Position numbers and translations under genes: made by a program. From a virus (taxonomy: Duplodnaviria > Heunggongvirae > Uroviricota > Caudoviricetes), in the IMG/VR virus record IMGVR_UViG_2703718871_000021, positions 1 through 39,908 of that record: a DNA stretch of 39,908 nt; one strand, written 5' to 3'. Shown piece after piece: positions 470 to 16,511 of the stretch (position 1 is its first letter; the number at the start of each line of letters is the position of its first letter). The notes under the pieces were generated by a model. The model did no database searches. It had not been told where the DNA came from and saw only the letters and a program-made list of their open reading frames with translations.

Positions 470-1873
470 TTGAGAATGCCGCGCACTGTAACACATAATC
501 CGGATAGCCCCAATAATGACGATGTTTTAGCCGCATCTGAAAAATGGGACGCCTGTAAACCCCCCTATACCAGCGCACACATGAAAATCTGTGTTGCTGC
601 CGCTAAAATCATCCTCGCTGCTTCCGGCGTGGCTCGCCGTTCCAAATACGAAAAAGAGAACTATCTCCGTATCGATTTCAGCAAAGCCGGTAAGGTTACA
701 TTTTATGCCGAGTTTCCAAAAAAGATGGGCCTCAAAGGTAAAAAGCTCGGCGAGTGGCCGGAGCTCGCTATCCAGCTGGCGCGCGAAAAAGCGCTAGGTA
801 TGGCTGACGGTGGCCTGCGGGCAGAGTCCGTACATGCAGCGCTGGAAATGTACCGGGATGACCTCAAAGCCAAAGTCGCCCGGCAGAAGCTGAGCCCGGA
901 CAGTTTCACAACCTACGGGGTGCGTATCGACCGGATTAAAGCCACGTTCGGCGAGCGCGAGGTGTTCAGCGACGTAACATACAATCGGCTGGTGGAAGTG
1001 CTGGACGAGTGGATCGCCACTCGCTCGAACAATAACGCCCTGGAGTTGTTTGCCGAGCTCCGTCGGTTCTGGAAGTTCTGCGCACCTACTCTTTGCAATG
1101 GCCGCAATGTTGCCGCCAGTCTGCCAGATGATTATGTTTCCTCCCGCGTACAGAAACCCACCCCCACACGGCTTTTTACCGATATTGAATCAATCGCCCG
1201 ACTCTGGCTCAATGTTGCTGCCTGCACCTCTGTACACCAGAAGAATGCTGTTCGCTTCATGATCATCACTGGTGTTCGTCCGATTAATGTCCATAACCTG
1301 CGCTGGGACTACGTTCACGAGGAGGCTGGTGAAATTGTTTATCCGGAAGGGGTTATCGGCATGCGAGGGGCTATGAAAACACAAAAGGCTTTCCGCCTGC
1401 CGATAACGCCTGAGATCCGGCGGATTATCGACGAGCAGAAAGCCTGGCGTGATTCAGTTCCTGAGTGCAACAGGGATTATGTATTTTTGCAGCCACGTGA
1501 TCCAATGCAGCCATTTTCAAAACGATCACTGGATAAGCTGGTGAAAACATACAGCCCGGACGGGGCTGTAAAAGGAATAAAACATGATGGGACTGTTAAA
1601 GGGAAAGACGGTGCATTTAATACGATGTGCCGTAAATTCCTTAAGAGCAATGTTATTGCCTTGATGAAGGAAAGAGGCTATTCCCGCTCAGACCGAAGGG
1701 AAATCAGCCTCCTTTGCCTTCACCACTCCAGCAAGTCAGATGACCCGATGGCAGAACATTACGACTTTTCTGATGAGATTTTACAGGAAGAGATTGCGTT
1801 GAAGCGCGAAGCTTTCGAGGCTCACGAGCGGAGCATACTTGCGCAGGTGGCATTGCTACGGCGGCGAGGTTAA
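470..1873 (+). CDS. phage tyrosine integrase (site-specific recombinase)
   Basis: 467-aa ORF with AGGA-type RBS before ATG 470; first gene inside the element, convergent with an AlpA-like excisionase gene; size and N-terminal arm-binding-like region fit P4-type integrases; catalytic R-H-R-Y residues not verified by eye, start codon uncertain. Confidence 0.65.
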   Translation: MRMPRTVTHNPDSPNNDDVLAASEKWDACKPPYTSAHMKICVAAAKIILAASGVARRSKYEKENYLRIDFSKAGKVTFYAEFPKKMGLKGKKLGEWPELAIQLAREKALGMADGGLRAESVHAALEMYRDDLKAKVARQKLSPDSFTTYGVRIDRIKATFGEREVFSDVTYNRLVEVLDEWIATRSNNNALELFAELRRFWKFCAPTLCNGRNVAASLPDDYVSSRVQKPTPTRLFTDIESIARLWLNVAACTSVHQKNAVRFMIITGVRPINVHNLRWDYVHEEAGEIVYPEGVIGMRGAMKTQKAFRLPITPEIRRIIDEQKAWRDSVPECNRDYVFLQPRDPMQPFSKRSLDKLVKTYSPDGAVKGIKHDGTVKGKDGAFNTMCRKFLKSNVIALMKERGYSRSDRREISLLCLHHSSKSDDPMAEHYDFSDEILQEEIALKREAFEAHERSILAQVALLRRRG

Positions 1874-2070
1874 TACTGGCTGCGACATTTTTGAATAAAA
1901 GCGTCGACATTTCGGCGCTCATAACGAACTACTTTTGCACTGAAACGAATTGGTGCCAAGATAGCCCGATGACGATGCTTAATATTCCACTCACATAGCG
2001 TTTTCTGTGTAATACCTAACTTTTGGCATACTTCATCCGGGGTGAGTAAATCGTCGGGTTTCTCGCTCAT
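1870..2070 (-). CDS. AlpA/Xis-family excisionase or transcriptional regulator (helix-turn-helix)
   Basis: 66-aa ORF; LLTPDEVCQKLGITQKTLCEWNIK resembles the AlpA-type HTH; sits beside the integrase as excisionases usually do. Confidence 0.65.
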   Translation of the reverse strand: MSEKPDDLLTPDEVCQKLGITQKTLCEWNIKHRHRAILAPIRFSAKVVRYERRNVDAFIQKCRSQY

Positions 2071-3461
2071 GCTATACCTCTCTTTTTCATGGCATCGAGC
2101 AGGATGTCCTGCACTGTTCGTTTTGAGTTGCGCCGCTCCATCACCATTTCGTCCATAGTGTCGGCAGCAATAATGTGGTGAATAAATACCGGACGATTGT
2201 GTCCGGCCTGTATCTGTCTGGTTGGGCCGATACGTTCAATAATTTGCTGATACTGCTCCAGGTCCCACCAATGTGAGAAAAATACCAGTATGTTTCCGCC
2301 GTCCTGCATGTTCAGACCGTGGCCCGCGCTGGCTGGGTGTGCAAAGAGAACAGGAATCTTTCCGGAATTCCAGTCACGTAGTGTCTGTGGATCCTGGTCG
2401 AGGTTACGACCGCGAGGAAATGCTTTAAGCAAGCGTTCAAGATCGTGTTTCCAGTGATAAGCAACCAGCACAGGTGCGCCAGCTGCTTCGGTCAGTATGC
2501 TGTCCAGCGCCTGTAGTTTGGTGTCATGCAGTTCTGACCAACTTCCGGTGTCATCTGTGTATACTGCGCCGCTGGCGATTTGCAGACACTTCAGTGTCTT
2601 TGCCGCGGCGTTCGGTGCTTCGATGCCTTCGCCATTCAGCTCGAGGAACATTTCCTTTTCCATTTCACGATACTGCTGACGGGCCTTCGGCGGCATATCC
2701 ACGCGGATTACGTTATGGATGGGGTCTTTGATATCGAACCAGTCGGTCGCATCCAGCGAGAGGGTCACATCGGCTAACGCTCGCTGTATTTCACCCTGTG
2801 AGTGAGCAAAAGGCTCCAGTTTGGTCCAGCTCTGTCCCGGAAACTGTATCGATTTGAACCAGCGTGAGGTAAACGCGCCGTAAGTGCGCCCGAGACGTTG
2901 CCCCAGGTCCACAAACCACGATTGTCCCCACAAATCTACCAGGCCGTTCGGTGCTGGCGTACCGGTGAGATTTATCCAGCGCCGGACATACTTGTGCGCC
3001 ACTTTGCCCAGCGCCGCCGCGCGCTTACCACCACCTCGCAGCCGGAAGGATTTTAGCCGGGTGCTTTCATCTGGAATGACAGTACCGAACGGCCATCGTT
3101 CTCCCAATTCCTCAACCAGCCAGACAAGGTTATCGTAGTTGATGGTGAACACGCTCGCGTTGTTGTTCGCCAACGCTGCAGAGCGCGCTTTGGCATTACC
3201 AACAATTGGTTGTACCTCGATATTGCGCAAATGCCCCCACTTCAGTGCTTCATCCGGCCATGTGCTGGCAGCCACGCGCAGCGGCGCGAGAACCAGCGCA
3301 GGTTGTGTTTCTGCACCCGCCATGAAGAGGTCTTCCAGCGTAGTGAGTGTCGCTACGGTTTTACCCATTCCCATACCCGCCCAGATGTTGCCGCGCAGAA
3401 TGTTAGTTTGGTGATTGATTATGAGGTTTTGATAAATTCTGGGGTGGAATATGCTATTCAT
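2067..3461 (-). CDS. SNF2/DEAD-like superfamily-2 helicase (phage replication/recombination)
   Basis: 464-aa ORF; Walker A GMGMGKT near N-terminus, DExx-type box VIPDEST, C-terminal helicase-like region; start overlaps the excisionase stop (operon). Confidence 0.8.
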   Translation of the reverse strand: MNSIFHPRIYQNLIINHQTNILRGNIWAGMGMGKTVATLTTLEDLFMAGAETQPALVLAPLRVAASTWPDEALKWGHLRNIEVQPIVGNAKARSAALANNNASVFTINYDNLVWLVEELGERWPFGTVIPDESTRLKSFRLRGGGKRAAALGKVAHKYVRRWINLTGTPAPNGLVDLWGQSWFVDLGQRLGRTYGAFTSRWFKSIQFPGQSWTKLEPFAHSQGEIQRALADVTLSLDATDWFDIKDPIHNVIRVDMPPKARQQYREMEKEMFLELNGEGIEAPNAAAKTLKCLQIASGAVYTDDTGSWSELHDTKLQALDSILTEAAGAPVLVAYHWKHDLERLLKAFPRGRNLDQDPQTLRDWNSGKIPVLFAHPASAGHGLNMQDGGNILVFFSHWWDLEQYQQIIERIGPTRQIQAGHNRPVFIHHIIAADTMDEMVMERRNSKRTVQDILLDAMKKRGIA

Positions 3462-3522
3462 TAATACACCTATGGTAGAATATGGTCACTTCTCTCTCTA
3501 TATATAACTAACGGAGGCGGGT

Positions 3523-4320
3523 ATGCCCCTGGCGAAAATATTTACAAAGCAAGTTTCTTTATTAACTATGTTTTCAGCGTTAGCTTATGCGATGGCATAT
3601 TATTTTCAGAAAGGTGTTGCATCGTATTATGGCTATCCAGACCTTTTTATTAAAATAGACTTAAATACGCTATTGTATTCGGCTGTGTGGCTTTTGTTTT
3701 TTAGTTTTTTATTTCTCGGCGCCTTATATGCGGCGTTGATGTTTGATTTGAAAGGAAAATATTATGTTCCATTTATTGTATTTATAGTTGTTATGCTAAT
3801 GGCTAATATTTGTATAATAGGATTTCATTGGCCTTTTGGTTATTTCTCCGAAACTTCTGTGATGAGTGTTCAGGATATTTTATTATTTGCTATGCTTTTG
3901 TTGAATTATCACAATGTGGTGTCCATGCCAATCCATAGTAAGAGACACGAACATCATATGGAGAGCATTAGAAAATTTGGGAGGCTTGCAGAGTATAAGA
4001 ACGTATTTTATTATATCGATTTAAAAATCCTAAAGTCAGCTTTTCCTTTAGGGGTGATAACGTTGTTGATATTGAGCTATACATTCGGGAAGGTTACTGC
4101 ATTTAAAAATAACGAATATTATATGGTAGATGGTAGTAATACTAAAGTGTTGCTCAATTCATTTGGTAGTGGTTTTGTTGTTGGTGATTGTGAGTCAAAT
4201 AGCGCAAAATTTGAATTTGTTAATGATTTAAAAGGGATGAGATTCACAATCATGTCCTCTAAAAAGGAAATAGCTAAATTAAAAGAGTGTTTCGAAATAC
4301 GTGTTAAAAATACGGATTAA
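3523..4320 (+). CDS. hypothetical multi-pass membrane protein (AT-rich cargo gene)
   Basis: 265-aa ORF on the strand opposite to the surrounding early operon; visibly AT-rich; several long hydrophobic segments (LLYSAVWLLFFSFLFLGALYAAL, FIVFIVVMLMANICIIGF); GAGG-type RBS before ATG. Confidence 0.55.
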   Translation: MPLAKIFTKQVSLLTMFSALAYAMAYYFQKGVASYYGYPDLFIKIDLNTLLYSAVWLLFFSFLFLGALYAALMFDLKGKYYVPFIVFIVVMLMANICIIGFHWPFGYFSETSVMSVQDILLFAMLLLNYHNVVSMPIHSKRHEHHMESIRKFGRLAEYKNVFYYIDLKILKSAFPLGVITLLILSYTFGKVTAFKNNEYYMVDGSNTKVLLNSFGSGFVVGDCESNSAKFEFVNDLKGMRFTIMSSKKEIAKLKECFEIRVKNTD

Positions 4321-4332
4321 AGCATAAGTCTT

Positions 4333-4620
4333 TTATCCTTTATTGCGGCTTAAAATAATGGCCTCCAGATTTTTGCTATCCAGCACCACTACGGTAAAGC
4401 CCAGCGCGCGCAACCGTCCGTGTTCGCGCAACTGGTCAGGCCGTGGTGGCTTGCCGGGGGATTTACATTCAACGAAAATGATACGACCGCCGGGTAGCAG
4501 AACAATGCGATCTGGTACCGAGCGGCGACCGGGGGATACGAACTTAAAGGCAACCCCGCCAGCCTTTTTTACTTCAGCGACGAGGTGCTTTTCGATTAGG
4601 TTTTCACGTTCATAGGCCAT
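4333..4620 (-). CDS. VRR-NUC domain nuclease
   Basis: 95-aa ORF; EVKKAGG...FVECKSPGKPP...QLREH...GF pattern typical of VRR-NUC (PD-(D/E)xK-type) phage proteins; commonly paired with SNF2 helicases. Confidence 0.75.
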   Translation of the reverse strand: MAYERENLIEKHLVAEVKKAGGVAFKFVSPGRRSVPDRIVLLPGGRIIFVECKSPGKPPRPDQLREHGRLRALGFTVVVLDSKNLEAIILSRNKG

Positions 4621-4814
4621 TAGCTTTCGCCTTCCTGCTTTTTGCGTTTCTTCATGCAGATAGCGCAGTTCTCAGGATGGTCATGCCATTCATCAATCCT
4701 GATACCTGTGAACATCCATTTTCCGCATAGTGATATGGCTTCCCCCGAATTAAAGAAATGTGCTTTTTTTGACAGAGCGGGGAACCCCCAACCCTTATTA
4801 TCGATATTAGACAT
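4620..4814 (-). CDS. hypothetical small protein
   Basis: 64-aa ORF with strong RBS AAGGAGGTG before the ATG; stop overlaps VRR-NUC start; Cys/His-containing C-terminal part (HDHPENCAICMKK). Confidence 0.5.
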   Translation of the reverse strand: MSNIDNKGWGFPALSKKAHFFNSGEAISLCGKWMFTGIRIDEWHDHPENCAICMKKRKKQEGES

Positions 4815-4850
4815 CGTCCACCTCCTTACGCTTTTCGCGCATGTTCTGCA

Positions 4851-4985
4851 TCAGACAAAAATCAAACCGACGTTCGCTTTGGCCCAGACCTGCATCGCCC
4901 GGTCGTACCCGCCGGACTGTTCAAGGTGCAAAGCCTCCCGCACAGTCCGGTAATAAAGCGGACTGTCTCGGTATTTAAATGACAT
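4851..4985 (-). CDS. hypothetical small protein (44 aa)
   Basis: Short ORF found by hand (MSFKYRDSPLYYRTVREALHLEQSGGYDRAMQVWAKANVGLIFV), immediately upstream of and co-oriented with the 64-aa gene; below the 60-aa ORF-track cutoff. Confidence 0.3.
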   Translation of the reverse strand: MSFKYRDSPLYYRTVREALHLEQSGGYDRAMQVWAKANVGLIFV

Positions 4986-5000
4986 AGGGTTTTTATTCCC

Positions 5001-5027
5001 AAATAAAAAACCCCGCGATGCAGGGTT
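5001..5027 (-). terminator. putative rho-independent terminator downstream of the TIR-like gene
   Basis: On the minus strand CCCTGC-atc-GCGGGG hairpin followed by TTTTTTATTT. Confidence 0.45.
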
Positions 5028-5048
5028 GTAATCAACAATAAGGGGTAA

Positions 5049-5810
5049 TTACGAGGAAGCGTTAGCTATTTGAGCTTGTGTAAATTCGAAACCAGAATTT
5101 TGTAACCGTTGCACTAGACGAGGAACTGTTTCACGTACATGGTCGTTGAAATTCAGATACAAAATCCCGTTAGCATCAGAAGGCTGTTCTAGGTGCTGTT
5201 TCTGAAGGATTGCTACATTGCTGCGCCCTAAGGACGAAAGAAGCATACCCATCTCGAGTACAACGTTCTGTCTTGCGCGGGGTTGGATTTCTGCTTCACC
5301 GGCGCGCTTTGAGTATCCCATATCATCAGGTGTCAAAAGAACAATCCCGAAACGGGTAGCAGTTTGTCCTTGCCCAATTTCACGTTCAAGCTCTTCAATA
5401 ATGGTGAGTCCAGTCCCTCCCGTATTCTGCAAAATGAAATGGTCTGGTAATCCAAGTTTATGAAGGATTAGCTCAAGTTGCTCCTTTGCAGTATGGTCAT
5501 GGCCGTGAACAATGAATATCTTTTTGGGGAGCTCAGATGGCTGTTCTACGGCTAGTGGTGTTGCCGTGGGCGGCGTTCCTAAATGGGTCATTATTGCAGT
5601 TTCAACATTGGGACGTTCTTGAGGGTTACCTTGAAACTGAATGGTCCGGGTGGTGTAAAGGTTAACAATTACGCCATTCGTTAAACGATAGCAGTCACAA
5701 GTCTCACGCTGTTCGTGGGAAAAATTGGTGAACCCACACTCCCTCAAAAAGTCAGGAAAAGATTCTCTCGGGTATGGATAGGTGATCGGCATTTCAGTTA
5801 GTTCCTGCAT
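5049..5810 (-). CDS. TIR-like-domain protein with unknown N-terminal domain (candidate defence or counter-defence effector)
   Basis: 253-aa ORF; residues ~97-230 (KKIFIVHGHDHTAKEQLELIL...GLTIIEELE...FGIVLLTPDDMGY...NVVLEMGML) fit my recollection of the bacterial TIR-like family (PF10137/COG4271 type); N-terminal ~95 aa unassignable; co-oriented with DNA polymerase gene. Confidence 0.6.
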   Translation of the reverse strand: MQELTEMPITYPYPRESFPDFLRECGFTNFSHEQRETCDCYRLTNGVIVNLYTTRTIQFQGNPQERPNVETAIMTHLGTPPTATPLAVEQPSELPKKIFIVHGHDHTAKEQLELILHKLGLPDHFILQNTGGTGLTIIEELEREIGQGQTATRFGIVLLTPDDMGYSKRAGEAEIQPRARQNVVLEMGMLLSSLGRSNVAILQKQHLEQPSDANGILYLNFNDHVRETVPRLVQRLQNSGFEFTQAQIANASS

Positions 5811-5874
5811 AAGTATTGTTCCTTTAATTTACTCGAATTCAGCATGTCGCCATAGCTCGATAAGGTGAGTTATA

Positions 5875-7938
5875 TCAATCTTTTTTGTAGTGGTACGCCT
5901 CAAAACCGCCAGCGTTCAGTGGGATATCGGGCGCCCATTCGGGGTCAGTGGAGAGAAGCGCGGAAAGCGCTTTATCGTTGAAATCTTCTGTGTCAGGTGC
6001 TTCGGTGATCACCTCGTCGTGTACCGTCAGCACAATGCTGTAACCGGCATCTTCGATAAGCGGCATGTTTCCGGCCAGAATGTCGCGGGCGGCCGCCTGG
6101 GTGATGTTCTCCACCAGCTTTCCGCCGTAGGTTTTGAGTCGTTGCCATTTACTCGAATAAGAGTTAACCCCCATGTAGGTGATATTCCCTTTTTCGATAA
6201 CCGGAGACGGGTGGCATACAGCGCGTCCGGATGGTAGCTGTATGCGCAGCCACGCGCCATCGCGGCGGATTTTAAGATAACCGCAATACAATGTTTTTTG
6301 CGGTGTGGCGATTGCAGTGCGGACGGTGCGCTCCAGTTCGTACCAGAAATCACAGGTCGCGGGATGCGCCCGGCGCCAGAGACGTTTAAGTGAGTCGCAG
6401 GCGATAAATACCCGTTCAGAAAGCCCGTAGGTTGACTTGCGTTTAACCGATTCGTCGTACCAGCTTTTCGCCTCGCGGATAACATCGCGGGGAATGTTTG
6501 GTAGTGCGGCGTTCGCCAGCTCGTCGAGATCGAGACCGTAAACCAGTGCAAAAGTGATGAAGGCCGACACACCACCACCATAACCCAGACCGAGTTCCAT
6601 GACTTTACCGATCTGACGCATGTGTTTATCAACATCATCTGGTGCAATATCGAAAGCTTTTGCATACGCCAGTTTATATAAGTCCGGACCCGTTCCGGCG
6701 TCGTACTCTCTGAATGCATTCAGTTTCCATTCTTCTCCCGCCAGCCATGCCAGCATACGGCCTTCAATGTTCGACAAGTCACTTACCACCAGCTTTTTGC
6801 CTGTTGGCGCGATAATGCAGCCACGTAACGCTGAACTGGTTAGTTCCATGATATTGTCAAACAGCAGGTCTGCACATCCGGCTTTCAGTGCTTCGATGCC
6901 TTCGTCTATTTGTTCCTGTTTTAGTGAAGGGCGGGGAAGGTTCTGGGGCTGGAATAGCCGTCCGGCCCAACGACCGGTACGTGACGCCCCGCAGAACTGT
7001 AGCGTACCGCGTAAGCGCCCGTCGTGGCTTACGCCTTTCATCAGTGCCTTGTATTTACTGGTGCTGGTAGTACTGGCCTGCAGGCGGATAGCCAGCAGTT
7101 CTTTCACGGCAGATGGTAAATCGGGGTCGGCAATACGACGTTCCAGAGTACTGCGTTGCATGTCTGGTAGCTCCACACCGTAGGATTCAACAATGTGCTT
7201 AATCAACGCGTCTCGTTGTGTGGCTGCCTGCACTTTGCCATCAGTCATTTCCTGTGTACGCTTTGCCAGGCGCTTTTGTTCCTGGTCTACCGCGTCGATC
7301 GCAGCGCGTGCGAGTTCCACGTCCATGCAGACGCCCCGGTCATTGATCTGCTGATCACGATGCCAGAGCGCCAGTTCTGTCCCCTGATAATTCCACTTCG
7401 GCAGACGTTTATAGACTTCGCGCATTGCCTCGATATCCAGTCCGGCGTAAGCAACAAAGCGCCGCCATTCTTCCGGGTGGGTTTTGCTGGTGGCCCGGCG
7501 CAGTTTGCTGTTTTTCGGGCGTGGCTTACAGAACAGCTGGATCAGCGCTTTACCTTCTTTGTCCTTCGCTTTGTCTTGCGGGACGCCTAGTACTTCGCAG
7601 AGTTCCCCCAGAGACCCCGGGAGACCGTGCGCCAGCGCCTGCACCATTGTGTCGCGCCAACGTTCGACTGGCGGTGCCAGGCGCGGCATTGCATAACGCA
7701 GAACGGTGCGGTCGAAGTGAGAGTTATGGAAATAAAGCAGGGTTTCAGGGTCTGCGATTGCTTCGTATAAGCCGTGTGGAATACCACCACCGGCAGTGAT
7801 ATCCCATACGTTTACTGGCCCGTCGTTGATAGCCCATGCGAAAAGCATCACTTCAACGCCTTCGGCATACGCATGGGTACCGTTCGTAATAGGGATTTCG
7901 CAATAGGTTTCCAGGTCGCCCCATAGTATATTGGACAT
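5875..7938 (-). CDS. family A DNA polymerase with N-terminal 3'-5' exonuclease-like region
   Basis: 687-aa ORF; PolA motifs visible: motif A-like [16 protein letters not shown], motif B-like [16 protein letters not shown], motif C-like [10 protein letters not shown]. Confidence 0.9.
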
Positions 7939-7984
7939 GTGTTTACCTTGGTTTTTATTCTATTAACTGATTAAAAGATTAATT

Positions 7985-8614
7985 ATGCATATGATCCAAT
8001 ACTTGATTGACCATACAGAGCATCTGGAGAAAATAGCTGGATATATTTTTTCATGTTTGATTGTTATGGGAGTCTGGATAAGAAAGATCATTTTTAATTA
8101 TAAGTATAAAGAGCCTAAATATGTCAAGAAGTTAATTTTATATTTAGTTAAGTATGAACGTTATCTGGATGAGGAGGATAAGAGTGCCATAGAAAAAAGA
8201 ATAAATGATAAAATTATTCGTGATGCGCTGAAATTGCAATCCTCTTATAACCGAAGAGATGTTATTTACATTTGCAATAGATTAGAAAAAAGACAGTATA
8301 TAAATCAGTTGATTAAGCTTCAGAATTATATAGAGAAAGATAACGGAGTGTTTTTTATTAATGTTGATTTTTCAGGTTTTTTATTTATTATTAGTCGTCT
8401 GTTTTCCTTTCTGTGTTTTGTGCTGTTTACCCTTTTTTCTATTATCTGCATTATTTCCATAGGGCAAAATGAAGGCCTTTTAAATTATCTTGTGTATATG
8501 GTTATGATAATAGTTTTAGAGACTGTTGGTTTTTGGATGTATGATACTTTCCCGTCTAAGAAAAAGATCTGTGAACTAAATAAAGAATTGAGAAAGATTA
8601 AGATTCCTGAGTGA
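7985..8614 (+). CDS. hypothetical membrane protein (AT-rich cargo gene)
   Basis: 209-aa ORF on opposite strand to flanking replication genes; strongly AT-rich; Lys/Tyr/Ile-rich with hydrophobic segments (FLFIISRLFSFLCFVLFTLFSIICIISIG, LVYMVMIIVLETVGFW). Confidence 0.55.
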   Translation: MHMIQYLIDHTEHLEKIAGYIFSCLIVMGVWIRKIIFNYKYKEPKYVKKLILYLVKYERYLDEEDKSAIEKRINDKIIRDALKLQSSYNRRDVIYICNRLEKRQYINQLIKLQNYIEKDNGVFFINVDFSGFLFIISRLFSFLCFVLFTLFSIICIISIGQNEGLLNYLVYMVMIIVLETVGFWMYDTFPSKKKICELNKELRKIKIPE

Positions 8615-8666
8615 TTATACGCCTAATCAGTAGCCCGGTGTTTAACCGGGCGTCTATGAAGTAGGG

Positions 8667-9215
8667 TTAAATTAGTGCTTCAGCATCAGCACCTTCGCTG
8701 ATATCGTCGAAATCGTCAGCGCTTGCCACTCCGCCGCCAGCGAATGCATCGCCGTCTCGCAGGAACTGGACTCCGCCGAGTGAGGCATTAATGCGTTTAC
8801 CGAAATTATTGTCTTGTGCCCAGATATCGATAACGGCGTTTACATAGCACCCTGCATAGGGACGTCCGTCAGCCTGAATAAGTGGCGAACGATCGCGATC
8901 AAGAACAGCTGGGCGCGCTTTGTTAGCAGCATTCAGGAAGAAATTACCGGGGAAGCCTTCATACTCTGCTTTTTCATCACCATCATGCAGGCACAGATTG
9001 AGTTTTTTCTCCAGCTGGTTATAAATGGGCTCCCACTTCTCTCCCCATTTTTCCTTCGCTACCTGCTTCATAGCTTTACGGATTTCTTCCAGTTGTGGGT
9101 GTTTGGGTGACATTAAAAATACTGCGGAGAAACGTGGATCGCCTTCGCCGTTTACAGTTTTAGCTTCAAACAGAGACGGGAAGGCCAGACGAACATTGTT
9201 CAGCTTCAGTTTCAT
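8667..9215 (-). CDS. DUF2815-like phage protein (putative ssDNA-binding protein)
   Basis: 182-aa ORF starting MKLKLNNVRLAFPSLFEAK, a pattern I associate with DUF2815; acidic C-terminal tail (DDFDDISEGADAEALI) as in SSB-type proteins; adjacent to DUF2800-like and PolA genes. Confidence 0.65.
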   Translation of the reverse strand: MKLKLNNVRLAFPSLFEAKTVNGEGDPRFSAVFLMSPKHPQLEEIRKAMKQVAKEKWGEKWEPIYNQLEKKLNLCLHDGDEKAEYEGFPGNFFLNAANKARPAVLDRDRSPLIQADGRPYAGCYVNAVIDIWAQDNNFGKRINASLGGVQFLRDGDAFAGGGVASADDFDDISEGADAEALI

Positions 9216-9230
9216 GGGGATTTCCTTAAA

Positions 9231-10532
9231 TCAGATGAGGTCTGCGGTTAGCGTATCGTCGGATACGTCGTCGAAATCATTTATAGGGTTGATATTGAGT
9301 GCGGGGCGTGGGTCTGACTCGGGAACGACGGTTGGTTTACCATCAGCTCGTGTTATCAGTGCCTCGACTTTTGACCAACGGCGCGGACTGGCCTTTTTGA
9401 TAAGTTTTTCGGCTTTTGTGGGACTAATAAGTTTAAAGTCGAATACTTCTTCAGTTTTGTACCTGAACTGGTCCTTCAGAAGTGCGCGAGCTGCCTCTTC
9501 ATCACTCCAGACCCGGTTACCTTGTTTTCCTGTTACCAGTTTAAACCCCGGTACCGGATGTCCGGCATTGAGTTCATTGTGAACCCGGTCCCGTACTGCC
9601 TTTAGCCAGGATTCAATAAAGTCGGCCTGGCTATAGATCTCCGCAAGCTGCTCAATGGTTAACAGAGGTACACGTGCGCTGGCATTGGTGATTATTTCGC
9701 TGACAGGCTTTGTCAGATCTTTAAAATCGCTGGCCGCTGTTTGTAAATGCTGCATTTTCTGGGCAGTGCAAATAGCTTTTGCTTTACAGAAGCGGCACTG
9801 TTTTTCTCCAGGTATGAAGTTTTCCAGCGGTAGTGTCTCAATGCCTTCGCATTCAGCAATATTGAGAACAAGGATCGCACTGGTTGCGGCCTCCTGTGCC
9901 CGTTCACCGAAAGACTGAAGTTCCTGTACGGTTAACGACCATTCTGAAACGTGGTTGAGCCTTGGCTGGTGAATAAATAATCTTACAGTCTCAAAGTCAT
10001 ACAGCATGCTGAATTGTTCGAGCGCACCCAGAGCATACAGTTGTAGTTGCTCATTTTGTTCTGCATCAATGCGGACGCCTTTGCCATATTTCAGGTCGTG
10101 GATTTGTAATTCGTTACCAGCGATGATTATGCCGTCGGCAGTTCCGAAAGATTCTTCCACCCCCGTTATATGTGAGAAATCAACACGTTGTTCAACCAAT
10201 AGTTCATTATTCTGTGCAAGAGTCCAGACCGTATCAACATACCGGCCAACGGCTTCGACCATTTCATCATCCACCTGTGGGCCAGATGTATCATCAGGAT
10301 TTTCGCGAAGGGGGTATGAGCCGAGAAACATAGAAACATTGCATCCGGCGTAGTGTTCCGGGTGGCTTTGCCTGTTTCGTAGAACTTTTTCAGCAAGCGC
10401 GTGCGCTGCAGTGCCCTCGATTGCAAAAGTTGTTTCTTTATCCGGTTGTGTGGCCTCCAGCGCCAGACTTCCTGGGCAGCGCATCCATCGATGCGCTGAT
10501 GATGGAGAAAGTTGTGCATGAACGTCTGGCAT
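9231..10532 (-). CDS. DUF2800-like PD-(D/E)xK nuclease (Cas4/RecB-like)
   Basis: 433-aa ORF; N-terminal [14 protein letters not shown] signature; D/E-x-K-like core (IHDLKYGKG); cysteine cluster [10 protein letters not shown]. Confidence 0.75.
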
Positions 10533-10534
10533 GA

Positions 10535-11437
10535 TTAACCCTCCAGTGCTTTTTCAGCCAGGGTGATTACTTCAGCGAGATTTTCATCCGTTACTTCACC
10601 AAGTTTCCTGGCTCCCTGTTTTTCCAGAATTGCAATAGCTTCTGCCCGGTAACCCCCTTTTGCTAACTGGAGGATCAACCCTTCAGCTTGTTTGCGTAGT
10701 GCCGCGAAATCAATTGTATGGTCATCTTTGGCGTCATTATTCTGGCTGGAATTTGCTGCGTCTCTGCGTGCAAATTCTTCCTGCAGCTGAAGGTACTCAA
10801 CACGATTGATCTCGATATGGCCTTTTTTCAGCATCTCGTTCAACTTGCGTAAGGTGTGGAGTTCACTGGCTGCTGTGCCGGATACATTTTTGACGTAAAA
10901 CGGCCCCGTGCGTTCTCCATCTTTGTTACTGGCCTTTTTCGGCTTAACTTCATCACGCCCATCCGCAGGTGCATCAAGTAGCTGCTCGGCAAAAGCACGT
11001 CGCTCGCCGATGGTTGGCAGGTCGTCCCAGAACTTAAGGATGTTACGGGACAGGTCCAGGAGAGCAGGTTTAAGCAGCGCCCTGGTTCGTTTGACGCCCT
11101 GCAATGCGCTGTCGAGAGCATCAATCTGAACAACTCGTTTATCGCCTTCAGCATCACGGTAGGCAACAGCACGTTGCAGCATGTCTTCTGTGATAGGGGT
11201 GGCTACCGGGTAGAAACCAGCCAGTGCGATAACGTCGCTGAACTCCAGATCATCCAGTGTCATTGCCGCTGACATATTTTCAGTTTCAGTTGCTGTATCC
11301 CGACATTCCTGCACTCGTGAAATCGTGTCAGGATGCATAACAATGCCTGATGCCATTGTGCGGATAAGACGTTCAAGCAGCGCATTATGTTGTGCCAGAA
11401 GTTGATTATTAAGTTCGAGACTGGTTTCTAAACTCAT
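10535..11437 (-). CDS. hypothetical phage early protein
   Basis: 300-aa ORF, stop adjacent to next gene start; acidic, helical-looking; no recognisable motif. Confidence 0.65.
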
Positions 11438-11583
11438 ACTGTGGTCCTCGCTACAAGGAGAATGAAAGTGATGATCAGACCGAGCGCAGTGGCAACGGCC
11501 AGACCGGTCATCAAATCAAAGTTTTTACGGCGATAACGGAGAACATCGCGCCCCGTCAGTCGATAGAGGTGTTCAGGTTTCAT
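11434..11583 (-). CDS. hypothetical small membrane protein (49 aa)
   Basis: Hand-found [52 protein letters not shown] with AGGA RBS; stop TGA overlaps the ATG of the 300-aa gene (ATGA); one predicted TM helix. Confidence 0.4.
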   Translation of the reverse strand: MKPEHLYRLTGRDVLRYRRKNFDLMTGLAVATALGLIITFILLVARTTV

Positions 11584-11641
11584 CGGTTGTATTCCTTTTT
11601 TCATATCGGGGAGCGCGCTGTTGCGAGTGCGCTTTCAGACA

Positions 11642-11668
11642 TAAAAAAGCCCGTCACTTGCGGCGGGC
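11642..11668 (-). terminator. putative rho-independent terminator in the early-left leader
   Basis: Minus strand reads GCCCGCC-gcaagt-GACGGGC followed by TTTTTTAT. Confidence 0.5.
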
Positions 11669-12059
11669 AAAGACTACACACAGCAATTACATGGATGATT
11701 CAGTTGGTATTGTGCGTACGTGGTACCACGAGGTTGAAGCGGACACGCCAGTGCGTTGCAATGGTATGCAGGAAAGCACCACATCCAGGGCAGTGCTCAT
11801 AACATTCGTTGATTTGGTATCGTTTTGGCTTTGGTGTCTGAAGCTGTGTTTGGCAAGCAGGGCATTCACCTTTTGAGCGGTTTATACGTTTTCACGCCGT
11901 TTCCTCATTCAGTTCACTTTGGTGGTTCGGCGGCTTCGACTTGTATCAGTAGACAGTGCTTCGCCGCACCCCAAAGGGAACTTACTGACCCGTATTGCCG
12001 ACATCCTGTCCCGCCACGGTCCCGACGCATGGTTTAGAGTCGCGCCGTTCGACTTGTGG

Positions 12060-12180
12060 CTAAGGATACAATTTAGGTTGTATTGTGTAAACCACAAATG
12101 TGGTATTTTGTGGGGTGTGAATACTACTTTATTGATATTCAAGTGAATTTAATTTGTAAGACTTTACAAATGGGGTAAGG
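12060..12180 (-). promoter_or_regulatory. putative leftward early promoter/operator region (PL/OL-like)
   Basis: Non-coding stretch directly below the repressor gene; contains GGTTGTATT also present in the cI-cro intergenic region, TTGTAT half-sites and inverted repeat ACCACAaaTGTGGT. Confidence 0.35.
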
Positions 12181-12217
12181 GAGACTGTTACGCCTCCCGA
12201 TATTTACGGTGGGAATA

Positions 12218-12841
12218 CTAACGTTTACGGCGGTAAATACGGTGTTCGATCATTACACCTATGATCTGTAAGTTCATATCTGCACTACGAAAAATAGGGT
12301 AATCAGGATTTAGGGGGATTAATTCAAAGTCGTCGATGCCGATTCCTAATGGACGGTATTTTTTAAATGTAGCTTCGTGACCGTCGTTTTTGGCGACAAC
12401 AAACTCCCCTGGTGCAGGACATAGCTCAGGATCGATGATAACAATGTCTCCTTCTTTAAACTCTGGTTGCATGCTGTCGCCATCAATACGTAATGCGAAG
12501 CATGTTTCTGGAATGTCAGAGTCTGCCAAAATATATTCAAATTCCCCTGTCAGATCTGTTATGTCTCTTGCTTCTGTAAGCTCTCCTGCCTGAACGTAAC
12601 TTAATATAGGTATGCGTCTGGTACTTATCTCCGCGAGAGGCATAATATTTTTACCGTTCAGTAGCCAGTCTGGGCTACATTTCAAGGCCTTAGCCAGATC
12701 CAGAAGATTGCGTGGCTTTCTAGTTCGTCCACTTTCGATGGATTCTATGGATTGTTGGCTAACCCCTGCAGAATTCGCTACTTCCACTTGAGTCATTCCT
12801 AATTCCAAACGACGTGCTTTAAAACGGGCTGCGAGAGACAT
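12218..12841 (-). CDS. cI-like repressor (XRE-type HTH plus S24 LexA-like peptidase domain)
   Basis: 207 aa from ATG 12841 (RBS AGAAGGA); N-terminal HTH (LGMTQVEVANSAGVSQQSIESIESG); C-terminal S24 signature with Ser in GDSMQPEF and downstream Lys (FKKY); ORF-track start 12892 is probably an upstream non-ATG artefact. Confidence 0.85.
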   Translation of the reverse strand: MSLAARFKARRLELGMTQVEVANSAGVSQQSIESIESGRTRKPRNLLDLAKALKCSPDWLLNGKNIMPLAEISTRRIPILSYVQAGELTEARDITDLTGEFEYILADSDIPETCFALRIDGDSMQPEFKEGDIVIIDPELCPAPGEFVVAKNDGHEATFKKYRPLGIGIDDFELIPLNPDYPIFRSADMNLQIIGVMIEHRIYRRKR

Positions 12842-12961
12842 GGGATTAGTCCTTCTGGGTTGTATTAATGTGTATACCCACATTAAAAACAATTTTTGTT
12901 GTATTTGACAAACCTTGTTTGTTGTTGCTAAATACCACTAAAATTGTATGAGGTGAAAGCA
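12842..12961. promoter_or_regulatory. divergent promoter/operator region between repressor and cro-like gene
   Basis: 120-bp intergenic; rightward promoter candidate TTGACA (12905-12910) with TG-n-TAAATA extended -10 (~12926-12934); repeated TTGTAT-containing motifs and inverted repeat ATGTG...CACAT. Confidence 0.45.
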
Positions 12962-13174
12962 ATGACCTTAGCGACCCGAGTAAAAGAACGACGTAAAGAA
13001 CTCAAAATGACGCAAGTTACGTTGGCTGAGCTCACAGGAGTGAGCCAGCAGGCAATAAACAGAATTGAAAGTGGTGTTATTGCTCGGCCACGTTATCTTC
13101 TTGAAATGTCTATAGCATTGGATTGCGACCCTAATTGGCTGTTGTATGGCTCACAAAACGATAAAAAGGCTTAA
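12962..13174 (+). CDS. Cro-like HTH regulator
   Basis: 70 aa from ATG 12962 (RBS GAGGTG); XRE-type HTH (VTLAELTGVSQQAINRIESG); divergent from repressor. Confidence 0.8.
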   Translation: MTLATRVKERRKELKMTQVTLAELTGVSQQAINRIESGVIARPRYLLEMSIALDCDPNWLLYGSQNDKKA

Positions 13175-13177
13175 CCC

Positions 13178-15364
13178 ATGTCCGATAGCAAACCATGGGG
13201 AGCTACGCCTGATGAGTGGTTTCATTTCGACCTGGTATTGGGGAGAACTGATCATCTTCTCCCAGTTGTATGTAACCCCGGTGCGACCATATCCCCTGAT
13301 AGTAAACTGAAAGCGCTGGGTAAGACGCCAAGTCGCTATAACCGGGACCATCAGGTCACCGGTATTGCTCAATGGACCGGGCATGTTGTTACTGAGCATG
13401 ATTTTGCCCGCTGGTCGAATGAACCGGATTATGGCATCTGCGTGCGTACAGGCCATGGCTGGCTGGCGCTGGACTGTGATAGCGAAGATGAAGACATTCA
13501 GGCAGATATTCGCAAAACGCTTGTGCAACTTCTGGGGGAGTTGCCGCCGCGACGCTGGCGAGCAAACAGTAATAAGTGTCTGTATCTGCTGGCCGTTGAT
13601 GGTGATTTCCGTAAGCGTATCCATCGCCTGGCGGGGGATATGGGCATTATCGAGTTGCTGGCGAACGGGCAGCAGTTCGTTGCCTGCGGTACGCACAGCA
13701 GCGGCGCGCGTATTGAATGGGACGGTGGTTTGCCGGATGAACCTCCGGCTATTACAGGTGAGCAGCTTGAAACGCTGTGGCAGCGCCTGGCTGAACAACT
13801 CCCTGTGTCGGTAACCACCGAAGCGGGCAACACGAAGATGCGCGACCGTTCAGCATTCACGCCCGGCGCGACGGATGATACAGCTGAATATCTTGATGCC
13901 AATGGCTGGACGCTGCTGGATGGCGCAAACGGTGAACGATATATCCGCTGTCCGTTTGAAGACGGCCACAGTAGCGGAGGCGATCCAACAAGCACTGTTT
14001 ATTTTCCTGCGGGAACCGCAGGCTTTGAGCAGGGGCATTTTAAATGCCTGCATGCCAGTTGCGCGCATCGTGATGACGGAGATTTCCTGAATGCCATCGG
14101 GATCCGCAACGACGATTTCGAAGATCTGACCAGCATCGAAGTGGCGGAACCTTTACCGCTGCCTGCTTTCGAGCGTGATAAATGGGGGCGTATCGAGGCA
14201 ACCATCAGCAACGCAGCCAAAGCAGTAGTACGCTCTGATTTTGTGGACATCGATATTCGCTTTGACCAGTTCCGCGACGAAATCATGTTTGCCCCGGCAG
14301 GATCCGGACAATGGCGGGCATTCACCGATGCGGATTATGCGCGCCTGCGCATCACGATGGAAAAGCGGGGATTTAAACCTGTTGGTCGTGAACTTATTCG
14401 CGATGTGGTGTTACTTGCAGCCGATGAACAACCATTCGATTCAGCGATCACCTGGCTGAACGGGCTGGAGTGGGATGGCGTGCCGCGCATCGAATGTTTC
14501 TACCATACGCACTTCGGTACAGCCGACACGCCTTATACCCGTGCGGTGTCTATGTACATGTGGACCGCGTTGGCGGGGCGAGTACTGGAGCCAGGCATCA
14601 AAGCGGATATGGTGCCGATCCTCGTTGGTCCGCAGGGCTGCGGTAAGTCTTCCGGAGTGGAGGCACTGAGCCCTGATCCTGCGTTTTTTACTGAAATCTC
14701 TTTTGCCGAAAAAGACGATGATCTCGCTCGAAAAATGCGTGGTCGGCTGGTGGCAGAGATTGGTGAACTGCGCGGACTTAATACCAAAGAGCTGGAGTCA
14801 ATCAAAGCGTTTGTGACGCGTACTCACGAAAACTGGATCCCGAAATACCGGGAGTTCGCCACCCAGTTTCCTCGTCGCCTGGTGTTCGTTGGTACCACTA
14901 ATGAGGACGAATTCCTTGCGGACAAGACTGGTAACCGTCGCTGGCTCCCCGTGGAAGTGTCGAAAGTCGACGTGAAAGCGATAAAAAGAGATCTCCTTTT
15001 ACTTTGGGCTGAGGCTCGTGAGGTGTTTCAGCGTCTGGGGGGTATCCAGTTCCGTGAGGCTGAACAACTGGCAGCGAGTGTCCATGAACAGTACACCATC
15101 AAGGATGCTTGGCTTGAAACGGTAGAGAAATGGCTCGACACGCCCGACCTGATGACTAATGAACTTCCGCGAAATTGCGAATTTTTACGCGCAAGTGATG
15201 TTTTGCGTGATGCGATTGGGCTAAATCCTGACCGCATCGGAAAACGCGAAGAAATGCGAATTAGTAATGTTTTGCAAAATTGCGGGTATAAGCGTGCCCA
15301 AAGGCGAATTGGGGGGAAAAAATGCAAGGTTTGGGAACCGCTGGAACCACGCGGAACCACCTAA
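13178..15364 (+). CDS. replication primase / P-loop NTPase (prim-pol-like N-terminus, VirE/D5-type C-terminus)
   Basis: 728-aa ORF; Walker A GPQGCGKSS and Walker B-like LVFVGTTNED in the C-terminal half; Cys/His-rich mid-region (CPFEDGHSSG...HFKCLHASCAH); directly after cro. Confidence 0.8.
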   Translation: MSDSKPWGATPDEWFHFDLVLGRTDHLLPVVCNPGATISPDSKLKALGKTPSRYNRDHQVTGIAQWTGHVVTEHDFARWSNEPDYGICVRTGHGWLALDCDSEDEDIQADIRKTLVQLLGELPPRRWRANSNKCLYLLAVDGDFRKRIHRLAGDMGIIELLANGQQFVACGTHSSGARIEWDGGLPDEPPAITGEQLETLWQRLAEQLPVSVTTEAGNTKMRDRSAFTPGATDDTAEYLDANGWTLLDGANGERYIRCPFEDGHSSGGDPTSTVYFPAGTAGFEQGHFKCLHASCAHRDDGDFLNAIGIRNDDFEDLTSIEVAEPLPLPAFERDKWGRIEATISNAAKAVVRSDFVDIDIRFDQFRDEIMFAPAGSGQWRAFTDADYARLRITMEKRGFKPVGRELIRDVVLLAADEQPFDSAITWLNGLEWDGVPRIECFYHTHFGTADTPYTRAVSMYMWTALAGRVLEPGIKADMVPILVGPQGCGKSSGVEALSPDPAFFTEISFAEKDDDLARKMRGRLVAEIGELRGLNTKELESIKAFVTRTHENWIPKYREFATQFPRRLVFVGTTNEDEFLADKTGNRRWLPVEVSKVDVKAIKRDLLLLWAEAREVFQRLGGIQFREAEQLAASVHEQYTIKDAWLETVEKWLDTPDLMTNELPRNCEFLRASDVLRDAIGLNPDRIGKREEMRISNVLQNCGYKRAQRRIGGKKCKVWEPLEPRGTT

Positions 15365-15520
15365 AAGAGAAGGTGGTTCCACCTTGCAGACCTTGTGGCA
15401 AGCGGGGCGGAACCACTGGAACCACTGGAACCGCCTTTCTACTAGAAACCCCATATATATATAAGTCGATTGAGGGAAAGGTTAGGAAAAGGTGGTTCCA
15501 GGTGGGGGCAGGTGGTTCCA
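15331..15520. repeat. iteron-like repeat array with AT-rich spacer (putative phage replication origin)
   Basis: GGAACC(A/G)C in direct orientation at 15334, 15343, 15353, 15409, 15418, 15427 and inverted (GGTGGTTCC) at ~15375, 15494, 15514; ATATATATATAA at 15453-15464; overlaps the 3' end of the primase gene. Confidence 0.5.
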
Positions 15521-15650
15521 CTCCGAATTAGCAACTTTTTACATGTTGATACATGCAATATGCGGATCGGAACTGCGTTATCCACACCCACGGATAAACA
15601 GACGTAGTTCTCAGAAAATTTTTTCGTAGCAAAACGTAGAGGTCAGAGCT

Positions 15651-16073
15651 ATGCGTAATATTCAACAGGTTTTAGAGCGCTGGGGTGGCTGGGCAGCGAG
15701 TGAAGGTGGTAGCGTCTACTTTCCTCCTGTTGCAGCTGGGTTTAAGAATCTGCTACCCGCGACGCAGTCTGGAAGGCTGAAATGCAGTGACAATGACGGT
15801 CTTATCATCAACTCCGCTATGAGCTGCCTGAAGAAAAAAGATCCGTATCTGTGCACGCTCCTTGAGTGGCATTACGTCCAGGCCATGCCCGTGCGGACGA
15901 TGGGTGAGAAGCTCGGCGTATCTCACACCCACGTTCTGAAGAGGCTTCAGGCGGCAGAGGGATTTATTGACGGTTGCTTAGCCATGCTGGATGTGGTGCT
16001 CGAAATGGATCAGTCGGTTCAGTCAAAGCCTCAGGCTATCAGGACTTTGCGTAGGAGCTGCTCGGCGGCATAA
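15651..16073 (+). CDS. Q-like late-gene antitermination protein
   Basis: 140-aa ORF starting MRNIQQVLERWGGWAA, resembling enterobacterial prophage Q antiterminators as I recall them; sits between replication genes and lysis cassette. Confidence 0.65.
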   Translation: MRNIQQVLERWGGWAASEGGSVYFPPVAAGFKNLLPATQSGRLKCSDNDGLIINSAMSCLKKKDPYLCTLLEWHYVQAMPVRTMGEKLGVSHTHVLKRLQAAEGFIDGCLAMLDVVLEMDQSVQSKPQAIRTLRRSCSAA

Positions 16074-16104
16074 TATCCAGCAATCAATCACGTAAGGGAA
16101 CCAG

Positions 16105-16446
16105 ATGGCTCTGATCAGCGTTCGCAACAGATTTGAAAGCTTCATGGAACAGAGGTACCCAGACCTGTCGTTGCAGGTCAAAGGTAATATTGGCGCATCA
16201 ATGAAGGCTCAACTTGGTATCAGGATTGAACGAGAATTGTACAGTGAAGATGTTACTTACTGTGATTCAGCAGTTCAGTTGATGTGGACACTCTTTCAGG
16301 CAGGTGTTCTGGCCGAACGAAGAGCTACCAGCGTTACGCTTCCTGCGCTGAAGGCAAAGCCGGATAGCTTCTACGATGCGGGTTATAACGAAGGTATTCA
16401 GGACTGTCGTAAACATCTGACGGCATCAGGCATCAAGGTAAGATAA
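16105..16446 (+). CDS. hypothetical protein in the Q-to-lysis cargo position
   Basis: 113-aa ORF with AGGGAA-type RBS; no recognisable motif; followed by a hairpin terminator. Confidence 0.6.
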   Translation: MALISVRNRFESFMEQRYPDLSLQVKGNIGASMKAQLGIRIERELYSEDVTYCDSAVQLMWTLFQAGVLAERRATSVTLPALKAKPDSFYDAGYNEGIQDCRKHLTASGIKVR

Positions 16447-16511
16447 AAAATAGTTGTGGAATTCCAAAAAGCCGATTAGCCTGATATCTGTTGAAAACAG
16501 TTCATCACGAA

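Follow-up and report, generated by a model that had tools for sequence, protein, structure and literature searches.

What is the role of the dense cluster of short repeats in which the primase gene of this virus ends? The sequence in question, further called the window, is the whole stretch of 39,908 nucleotides (positions 1 to 39,908) of IMG/VR virus record IMGVR_UViG_2703718871_000021, a member of the Caudoviricetes. The gene (13178-15364, plus strand) encodes a protein of 728 amino acids, here called the initiator, that combines a Prim-Pol primase of the archaeo-eukaryotic type, a VapE-like superfamily 3 (SF3) helicase/NTPase and a C-terminal domain of three helices and a β-hairpin. An earlier note had described the repeats, a series of GGAACC(A/G)C copies, as having the architecture of an origin of replication. 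We propose that the array is very probably the vegetative replication origin of a complete temperate phage in E. coli, organized as in the Staphylococcus aureus pathogenicity islands (SaPIs) and phage-inducible chromosomal islands (PICIs), and that it would be bound by the adjacent Prim-Pol/SF3-helicase initiator. Comparative and structural evidence supports this reading: the array recurs widely next to homologous genes, the initiator is homologous to the SaPI PriRep protein, the core of the array is the least stable duplex of its surroundings, and iterons and initiator end have been swapped together in nature.

Counted over both strands, the window contains 13 matches to the motif GGAACCRC, nine of which lie within 15334-15519. 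Dinucleotide-preserving shuffles gave a mean of 2.81 matches and at most 9, so that none of 100 reached the observed number. When all 8-mers were scanned without bias, the top cluster of the window was that of GGAACCAC, with seven copies in 200 bp compared to a maximum of two to three copies per cluster in 30 Markov simulations. The iteron-like array that had been noted is thus non-random, and its description holds in most details. Six copies are direct and form two triplets at the spacing of about 9-10 bp given before (15334, 15343 and 15353, 9 and 10 bp apart; 15409, 15418 and 15427, 9 and 9 bp apart), and the three inverted copies are found at 15373-15380, 15492-15499 and 15512-15519. A fourth inverted copy is degenerate (GTGGGGGC at 15502-15509, with 5 of 8 bases matching). 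Tandem Repeats Finder (TRF) detects a period of 9 with 2.7 copies at 15409-15432 and a period of 10 with 3.1 copies at 15490-15520.

These copies are arranged in three boxes and a lone inverted iteron. Box A (15334-15360, plus strand) consists of the direct iterons GGAACCGC, GGAACCAC and GGAACCAC, at spacings of 9 and 10 bp, and covers the last nine codons of the initiator open reading frame (ORF), as the earlier claim that the array lies partly inside the final codons implies. The frame ends with tgg gaa ccg ctg gaa cca cgc gga acc acc taa (stop codon TAA at 15362-15364), giving the C-terminal residues W E P L E P R G T T. In relatives, other 9-mers occupy the position of box A. The single inverted iteron (15373-15380, minus strand) is seen in all iteron classes and forms, together with the last copy of box A, a 10-bp palindrome (GGAACCACCT / AGGTGGTTCC) with its arms 8 nt apart. 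A spacer (15381-15408) leads from this iteron to box B; it is GC-rich in the class of the window, with a short hairpin CTTGC..GCAAG, and AT-rich (TTTTAACTAATTGAATTTAAAGG) in most other classes. Box B (15409-15434, plus strand) begins 45 bp past the stop codon of the initiator and comprises the direct iterons GGAACCAC, GGAACCAC and GGAACCGC at an exact spacing of 9 bp; its three copies are kept across the classes. Box C (15492-15519, minus strand), delimited by the repeat scan and TRF, holds the last two inverted iterons with the degenerate copy between them, and most iteron classes have three inverted copies here.

Between boxes B and C lies a conserved core (15435-15489), which we propose as the DNA unwinding element. 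It holds an (AT)6 run at 15453-15465. The (AT)n stretch that had been placed between the copies therefore separates the second direct triplet from the final inverted copies; it does not stand between the direct triplets. The least stable 25-bp duplex of the region 13000-16500 lies over this run (-25.2 kcal/mol compared to a mean of -34.6 kcal/mol) and belongs to the top 0.3% of the whole window for low stability. In an alignment of twelve representatives, about 55 bp of core are almost invariant across the classes and read ...CTACTA.AAACCCCAT(AT)nAAGTCG..GGGAAAGGTTAG.AAA. The flanks of the run, CTACTAGAAACCCC on one side and AAGTCG..GGGAAAGGTTAG on the other, are conserved beyond what an unwinding element alone needs, and these nearly invariant flanks could be a priming site or a site for a host factor.

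The initiator is assigned by sequence as well as by fold. Pfam detects the Prim-Pol domain (PF09250) at residues 50-188 (E 1.5e-10; 42.2 bits with a cutoff of 22.8) and VapE-like_dom at residues 427-639 (E 2.3e-60). The DNA primase family phrog_1156 matches residues 5-316, and PHROG helicase families match too. The only solved relative found by sequence in the Protein Data Bank (PDB) is 7pds, the PriRep protein of a SaPI (E 7.7e-34), which is also the best fold match in Foldseek (E 2.7e-12, approximately 456 columns, 21-22% identity). The N-terminus has fold matches to the prim-pol of pRN1 (1rni, 2.6e-5) and to NrS-1. At the other end of the protein, the AlphaFold2 (AF2) model has helices at approximately residues 641-653, 668-680 and 689-701, followed by strands at 704-711 and 714-721 with a predicted local distance difference test (pLDDT) score of about 66-80. 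The two strands make up a predicted β-hairpin "wing" (AQRRIGGKKCKVWEP, codons 704-721, 15287-15340, plus strand), the sequence of which co-varies with that of the iterons, whereas the helix REEMRISNVLQNCGY is nearly invariant among initiators.

The recurrence of the array was evaluated in relatives collected from IMG/VR (80 loci) and from genomes (24 loci), 97 of which were usable. A strict automated test required at least three copies in the same orientation to the left of a (TA)n run and at least two opposite copies to its right. The architecture passes this test in 88 of the 97 homologous loci, and most of the misses are algorithmic. The passing loci include Yersinia phage YeP4 and loci from Enterobacterales, Gilliamella and Burkholderiales. 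YeP4, whose protein is 73% identical, has this layout in the same place and builds it from another 9-mer, TAGACAACC; copies at the stop codon are followed by a single inverted one, by three direct ones spaced at 9 bp, by TATATATA and by three more in inverted orientation. The Gilliamella loci (57-58% protein identity) use the iterons CTTTCTACA or TGTAACCTT, a Burkholderiales genome (50% identity) uses TGTCACCAC, and the design is retained in Symbiopectobacterium at only 36% protein identity. Phage APSE-1 (locus L107, NC_000935), which was checked by eye, also has the architecture, with iterons GTAACAAC. In its record, a hypothetical protein "P4" (3445-3666) overlies the iteron and AT-rich region after the P3 helicase gene and is probably not a gene; the ORFs 15322-15531 (plus strand) and 15261-15521 (minus strand) of the window are artefacts of the same type.

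At least 13 different 9-mers are found among these loci. Direct and inverted copies switch together while the core stays constant, which is the pattern expected if a binding site co-evolves with its protein. In a common register, the classes include TGGAACCAC (the window), TGTACCAAC, TGTCCCAAC, TGTAACCAC, TGTATCCAC and TGTTACCAC, and further CTAGACAAC, CTAGACCAC, TGTCCCCAC, TGAAGCCAC and CGTAACAAC.

A natural experiment is provided by three sister prophages (L013, L014 and L015) that are 96-100% identical to the window over 8 kb, except for a segment of approximately 15300-15569 where the identity drops to 38-72%. Sliding identity over a MAFFT alignment thus delimits an exchangeable specificity cassette of about 270 bp (15300-15569) that consists of the last 15 or so codons and the iterons. 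In the three sisters, the iterons have become TGTACCAAC and the protein, from ...RRIGGK onward, switches from KCKVWEPLEPRGTT to MTRIFEAVSQPVPTSK. The same protein switch, ...RRIGGK followed by MTRIFEAVSQPVPTSK, is present in P0001. No other gene within the 8 kb is altered by the swap.

The same link appears across the classes. Among 70 distinct proteins, the columns most informative on the iteron class are 716, 715, 707, 708, 719, 712 and 717, all of which lie in the predicted hairpin. The tail at 720-728 also scores high, but it is encoded by the iterons themselves. At position 719, Trp goes with C at iteron position 7 and Phe or Tyr with A in 22 of 22 iteron/wing combinations, and CTAGACAAC with Phe versus CTAGACCAC with Trp makes a minimal pair. 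A simple rule in which Trp equals C7 and Phe/Tyr equals A7 was rejected as a code, because APSE-1 breaks it (GKVCRVW with GTAACAAC iterons); the relation is therefore a tendency. Taken over the at least 13 classes that co-vary with the wing, and with the natural swap that links both, the iterons appear to be matched to the initiator allele.

From these observations a further proposal arises, which we make tentatively and regard as close to evenly poised. The array and the last 15 or so codons, including the second strand of the wing, may form a self-contained origin-specificity cassette of about 270 bp that is exchanged horizontally and exists in at least 13 alleles among nearly identical phages. 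The wing, rather than the invariant recognition helix, would read the variable bases, and a cassette swap would reprogram the replicon. If true, the cassette alleles would make up a set of initiator-origin pairs that are naturally orthogonal to one another. The selection behind this diversity is likely the avoidance of cross-talk or hijacking among co-resident prophages and satellites that share the same replicon type.

The C-terminal tail PLEPRGTT, which follows W719 and E720 (codons 721-728, 15338-15361), is encoded by the iterons, and its length and sequence vary by class. In several iteron classes the stop codon of the initiator gene precedes the first iteron. The tail thus seems to be a side effect of the overlap and not a functional segment.

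The closest known systems are the SaPIs and PICIs. The origin (ori) of SaPIs lies immediately 3' of rep and comprises 6-12 iterons and an AT-rich centre, with at least two opposed iterons at each side (PMC9371898). The iterons are recognized by the C-terminal winged helix of Rep, a helicase that loads itself (PMC9371898). PICIs of Gram-negative bacteria have the same organization, and a pri-rep-ori segment from the E. coli PICI EcCICFT073 sustained a plasmid (PMC6092414). The window shares with these elements (SaPI1, SaPIbov1 and SaPI5 PriRep; EcCICFT073) a VapE-like SF3 initiator, with 7pds as the best PDB match, and an ori directly 3' of the gene in which opposed sets of short iterons surround an AT-rich centre; as in SaPI5, the primase is fused to Rep, whereas other replicons of this type encode it just upstream of rep. 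In SaPIs and PICIs, too, each Rep allele has its own specific iterons (PMC9371898; PMC6092414). The differences are that the element of the window is a complete phage with its own DNA polymerase, that its iterons are 9 bp long at a 9-bp spacing compared to 5-6 bp in SaPIs according to the papers, and that it has an extra iteron module over the stop codon.

Phage P4 resembles the window in several aspects. Its α protein likewise unites primase, SF3 helicase and C-terminal DNA-binding domain in one polypeptide, and its iterons are 8 bp long (GGTGAACAG) with a spacing of 9-11 bp, arranged as three direct copies, one inverted copy, an AT-rich stretch and two more copies. In addition, directly 3' of the α gene there is an iteron cluster, crr. 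Yet, α is composed of a zinc ribbon with Toprim, D5_N and Pox_D5, in contrast to Prim-Pol and VapE in the window, and P4 depends on a pair of separate cis elements (ori and crr), where the window has a single cluster. There is no second, crr-like iteron cluster in the window; the other four GGAACCRC matches are scattered singletons at chance level. Membership of the P4 α family was rejected (BLASTP E 0.69; different Pfam architectures with only a weak DUF5906 P-loop match in common), and P4 is an analogue of the system, not its family.

In phage lambda, the origin is located in the early rightward operon by the immunity region and its iterons touch the coding sequence of the initiator, while in lambdoid phages the specificities of initiator and iteron have diverged jointly, in matched pairs, between relatives. 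The window has the same features: a probable origin in the early operon near the immunity region, iterons that touch the initiator gene and diversification in matched pairs. Lambda recruits DnaB through P, whereas the initiator of the window is itself helicase and primase, and the lambda iterons measure about 19 bp instead of 9 bp. No homologue of O or P was found in the early region by a Pfam scan or in the RefSeq annotation, and a lambda-type O/P origin was rejected. The archaeal plasmid pRN1 offers a further parallel, since its ORF904 protein combines Prim-Pol with an SF3 helicase and with a C-terminal domain that is putatively a winged helix, and an essential cis region is located downstream of the gene (PMC2777425; PMC4234260); there, in contrast, iterons could not be identified by the authors (PMC2777425).

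A DnaA-dependent iteron origin as in plasmids was also considered. The window has only one perfect DnaA box, TTATCCACA at 15578-15586 (plus strand), 59 bp past the last iteron, and this box sits in a small palindrome TTATCC..GGATAA. It is kept in only about 20 of the 97 related loci, always with the same module upstream of Q, the antiterminator gene that follows the array. Because the box is not conserved with the origin and travels with the downstream Q module, a DnaA-dependent origin was rejected and we do not include the box in the proposed origin.

On the SaPI/PICI-type origin reading, we infer the course of events from binding to priming, including the role of box A, and these mechanistic details are held with lower confidence than the function itself. 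A single chain of 728 residues would act as primase, SF3 helicase and initiator, and its C-terminal domain of helices and β-hairpin would recognize the 9-bp iteron TGGAACCAC. With the three head-to-tail copies of box B (9-bp spacing) to the left of the core and the two to three opposed copies of box C to the right, two initiator oligomers of opposite orientation could flank the (AT)6 run. This run would then melt and the helicase rings would load themselves without a separate loader, after which the Prim-Pol domain would prime and the family-A polymerase of the phage would extend. Box A and its inverted partner at the stop codon may serve as an auxiliary binding module, and the nine residues after W719 would be merely what the iterons encode.

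Some observations weigh against this reading or parts of it. The model of the isolated C-terminal domain is of low confidence (pLDDT 61); when only the C-terminal 129 residues were used for a homology search, the matches were all gene fragments, and these fragments were the alignment for that model. A Foldseek search with the isolated domain gave no significant match, the top ones being winged-helix proteins with a best E of only 0.24. Since this search was null, a winged helix is assigned only tentatively, from topology and from the homology of the whole protein to 7pds. One locus, a Casimicrobium relative (L096, 41% identity), is clearly devoid of iterons and has only a hairpin after the gene; it is the sole such locus. 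The wing codons adjoin the iterons, so that part of the co-variation signal could be linkage alone. The cumulative GC skew rises monotonically, with no switch at the array. Finally, no replication assay, footprint or start-site mapping for this phage family was found in the literature.

The alternative that survives best, although we consider it improbable, is that the array serves mainly transcriptional control between the early operon and Q, with the palindrome of box A as terminator or attenuator, or with a protein-bound roadblock that times Q. The array is indeed situated between the initiator gene and Q (15651-16073), the palindrome folds as RNA with -21.4 kcal/mol, and TTTTAA follows it in several other classes. 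In the window, however, the hairpin lacks a T-run and a consensus scan yields no plus-strand terminator: scans for sigma-70 promoters and terminators gave none above chance, and within the array they matched only the palindrome of box A, read on the minus strand. Moreover, a terminator leaves unexplained the six more copies that are symmetric about the AT-rich core, and 60 of the 97 relatives have a gene other than Q downstream, although the array remains next to the initiator gene. A transcriptional role could thus be secondary, not main. An Rfam scan of 15000-16000 (E <= 1) found no family.

Still less probable, in our view, is that the repeats are sites of another protein, such as a repressor or Cro-like protein, a partition system or the packaging machinery, which would make the array an operator, a centromere or a pac site. 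Short repeats in two orientations are also known from centromeres and operators. GGAACCRC is nonetheless found neither in the intergenic region between repressor and Cro (12892-12944) nor beside the terminase genes, and the matches outside the array do not exceed chance. The natural swap changes iterons and initiator end and no other gene in the 8 kb, and no partition genes are annotated in the nearly identical copy of the prophage in E. coli strain DEC5B. That the array arose by chance or slippage and has no function is a generic possibility to which we give practically no weight, as neither shuffles nor simulations reached its clustering and its architecture is kept down to 36% protein identity with all copies replaced in concert.

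The proposed origin is of a known kind, the SaPI/PICI type, found in a complete phage and with many exchangeable variants of its sites. The design of iterons, AT-rich region and inverted iterons 3' of rep has been described as common to PICIs and to "no other known bacterial replicon" (PMC6092414). If the reading is correct, this design is used by complete phages as well and not by satellites only, and the origin is placed for widespread temperate phages, namely prophages of E. coli, Salmonella, Enterobacter, Klebsiella and Yersinia and the aphid-symbiont phage APSE. A description of this origin was not found in the literature, and the available parts of the APSE and YeP4 papers make no mention of one. 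The allelic series of 9-mers, paired with a few wing residues of a protein that is constant elsewhere, could serve as a data set on how self-loading SF3 helicases read origins and for the construction of orthogonal replicons.

The nature of the element follows from the copy mentioned above, which is 99% identical and lies beside yfhL in a complete prophage of E. coli O55:H7 DEC5B. According to RefSeq, this prophage encodes an integrase, an SNF2 helicase, a VRR-NUC nuclease, a family-A DNA polymerase, DUF2815 and DUF2800 proteins, and also holin, endolysin, terminase, portal, head, contractile-tail and baseplate genes; the positions of the ORFs in the window are consistent with this annotation. 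Given these lysis, terminase, head and tail genes, the element is a phage and not a satellite. A PICI, being a small helper-dependent satellite without virion or lysis genes, was rejected as the identity of the element, as the related prophage has these genes.

In the window, the gene order around the origin is repressor, Cro-like protein, initiator, ori and Q. A Pfam scan assigns the LexA/S24-type repressor (12218-12892, minus strand), the Cro-like helix-turn-helix protein (12944-13174) and the antiterminator or late-gene activator Q downstream of the array. The region 470-12892 contains the own replication toolkit of the prophage on the strand opposite to the initiator, with the SNF2 helicase (2067-3461), the family-A DNA polymerase (5875-7938), the DUF2815 protein (8667-9215) and the DUF2800 protein (9231-10532). 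The same early module has been described in APSE, YeP4, BPP-1, BcepC6B and Xfas53 (PMC8579659), and the abstract on YeP4 presents it as an induced Y. enterocolitica prophage (PMC6548840). The second-ranked 8-mer cluster of the window lies at 4913-4970, where three copies of CGGACTGT / ACAGTCCG in mixed orientation occur within 60 bp; an AT-rich stretch and a sequence resembling a stem-loop follow directly, where a gene ends.

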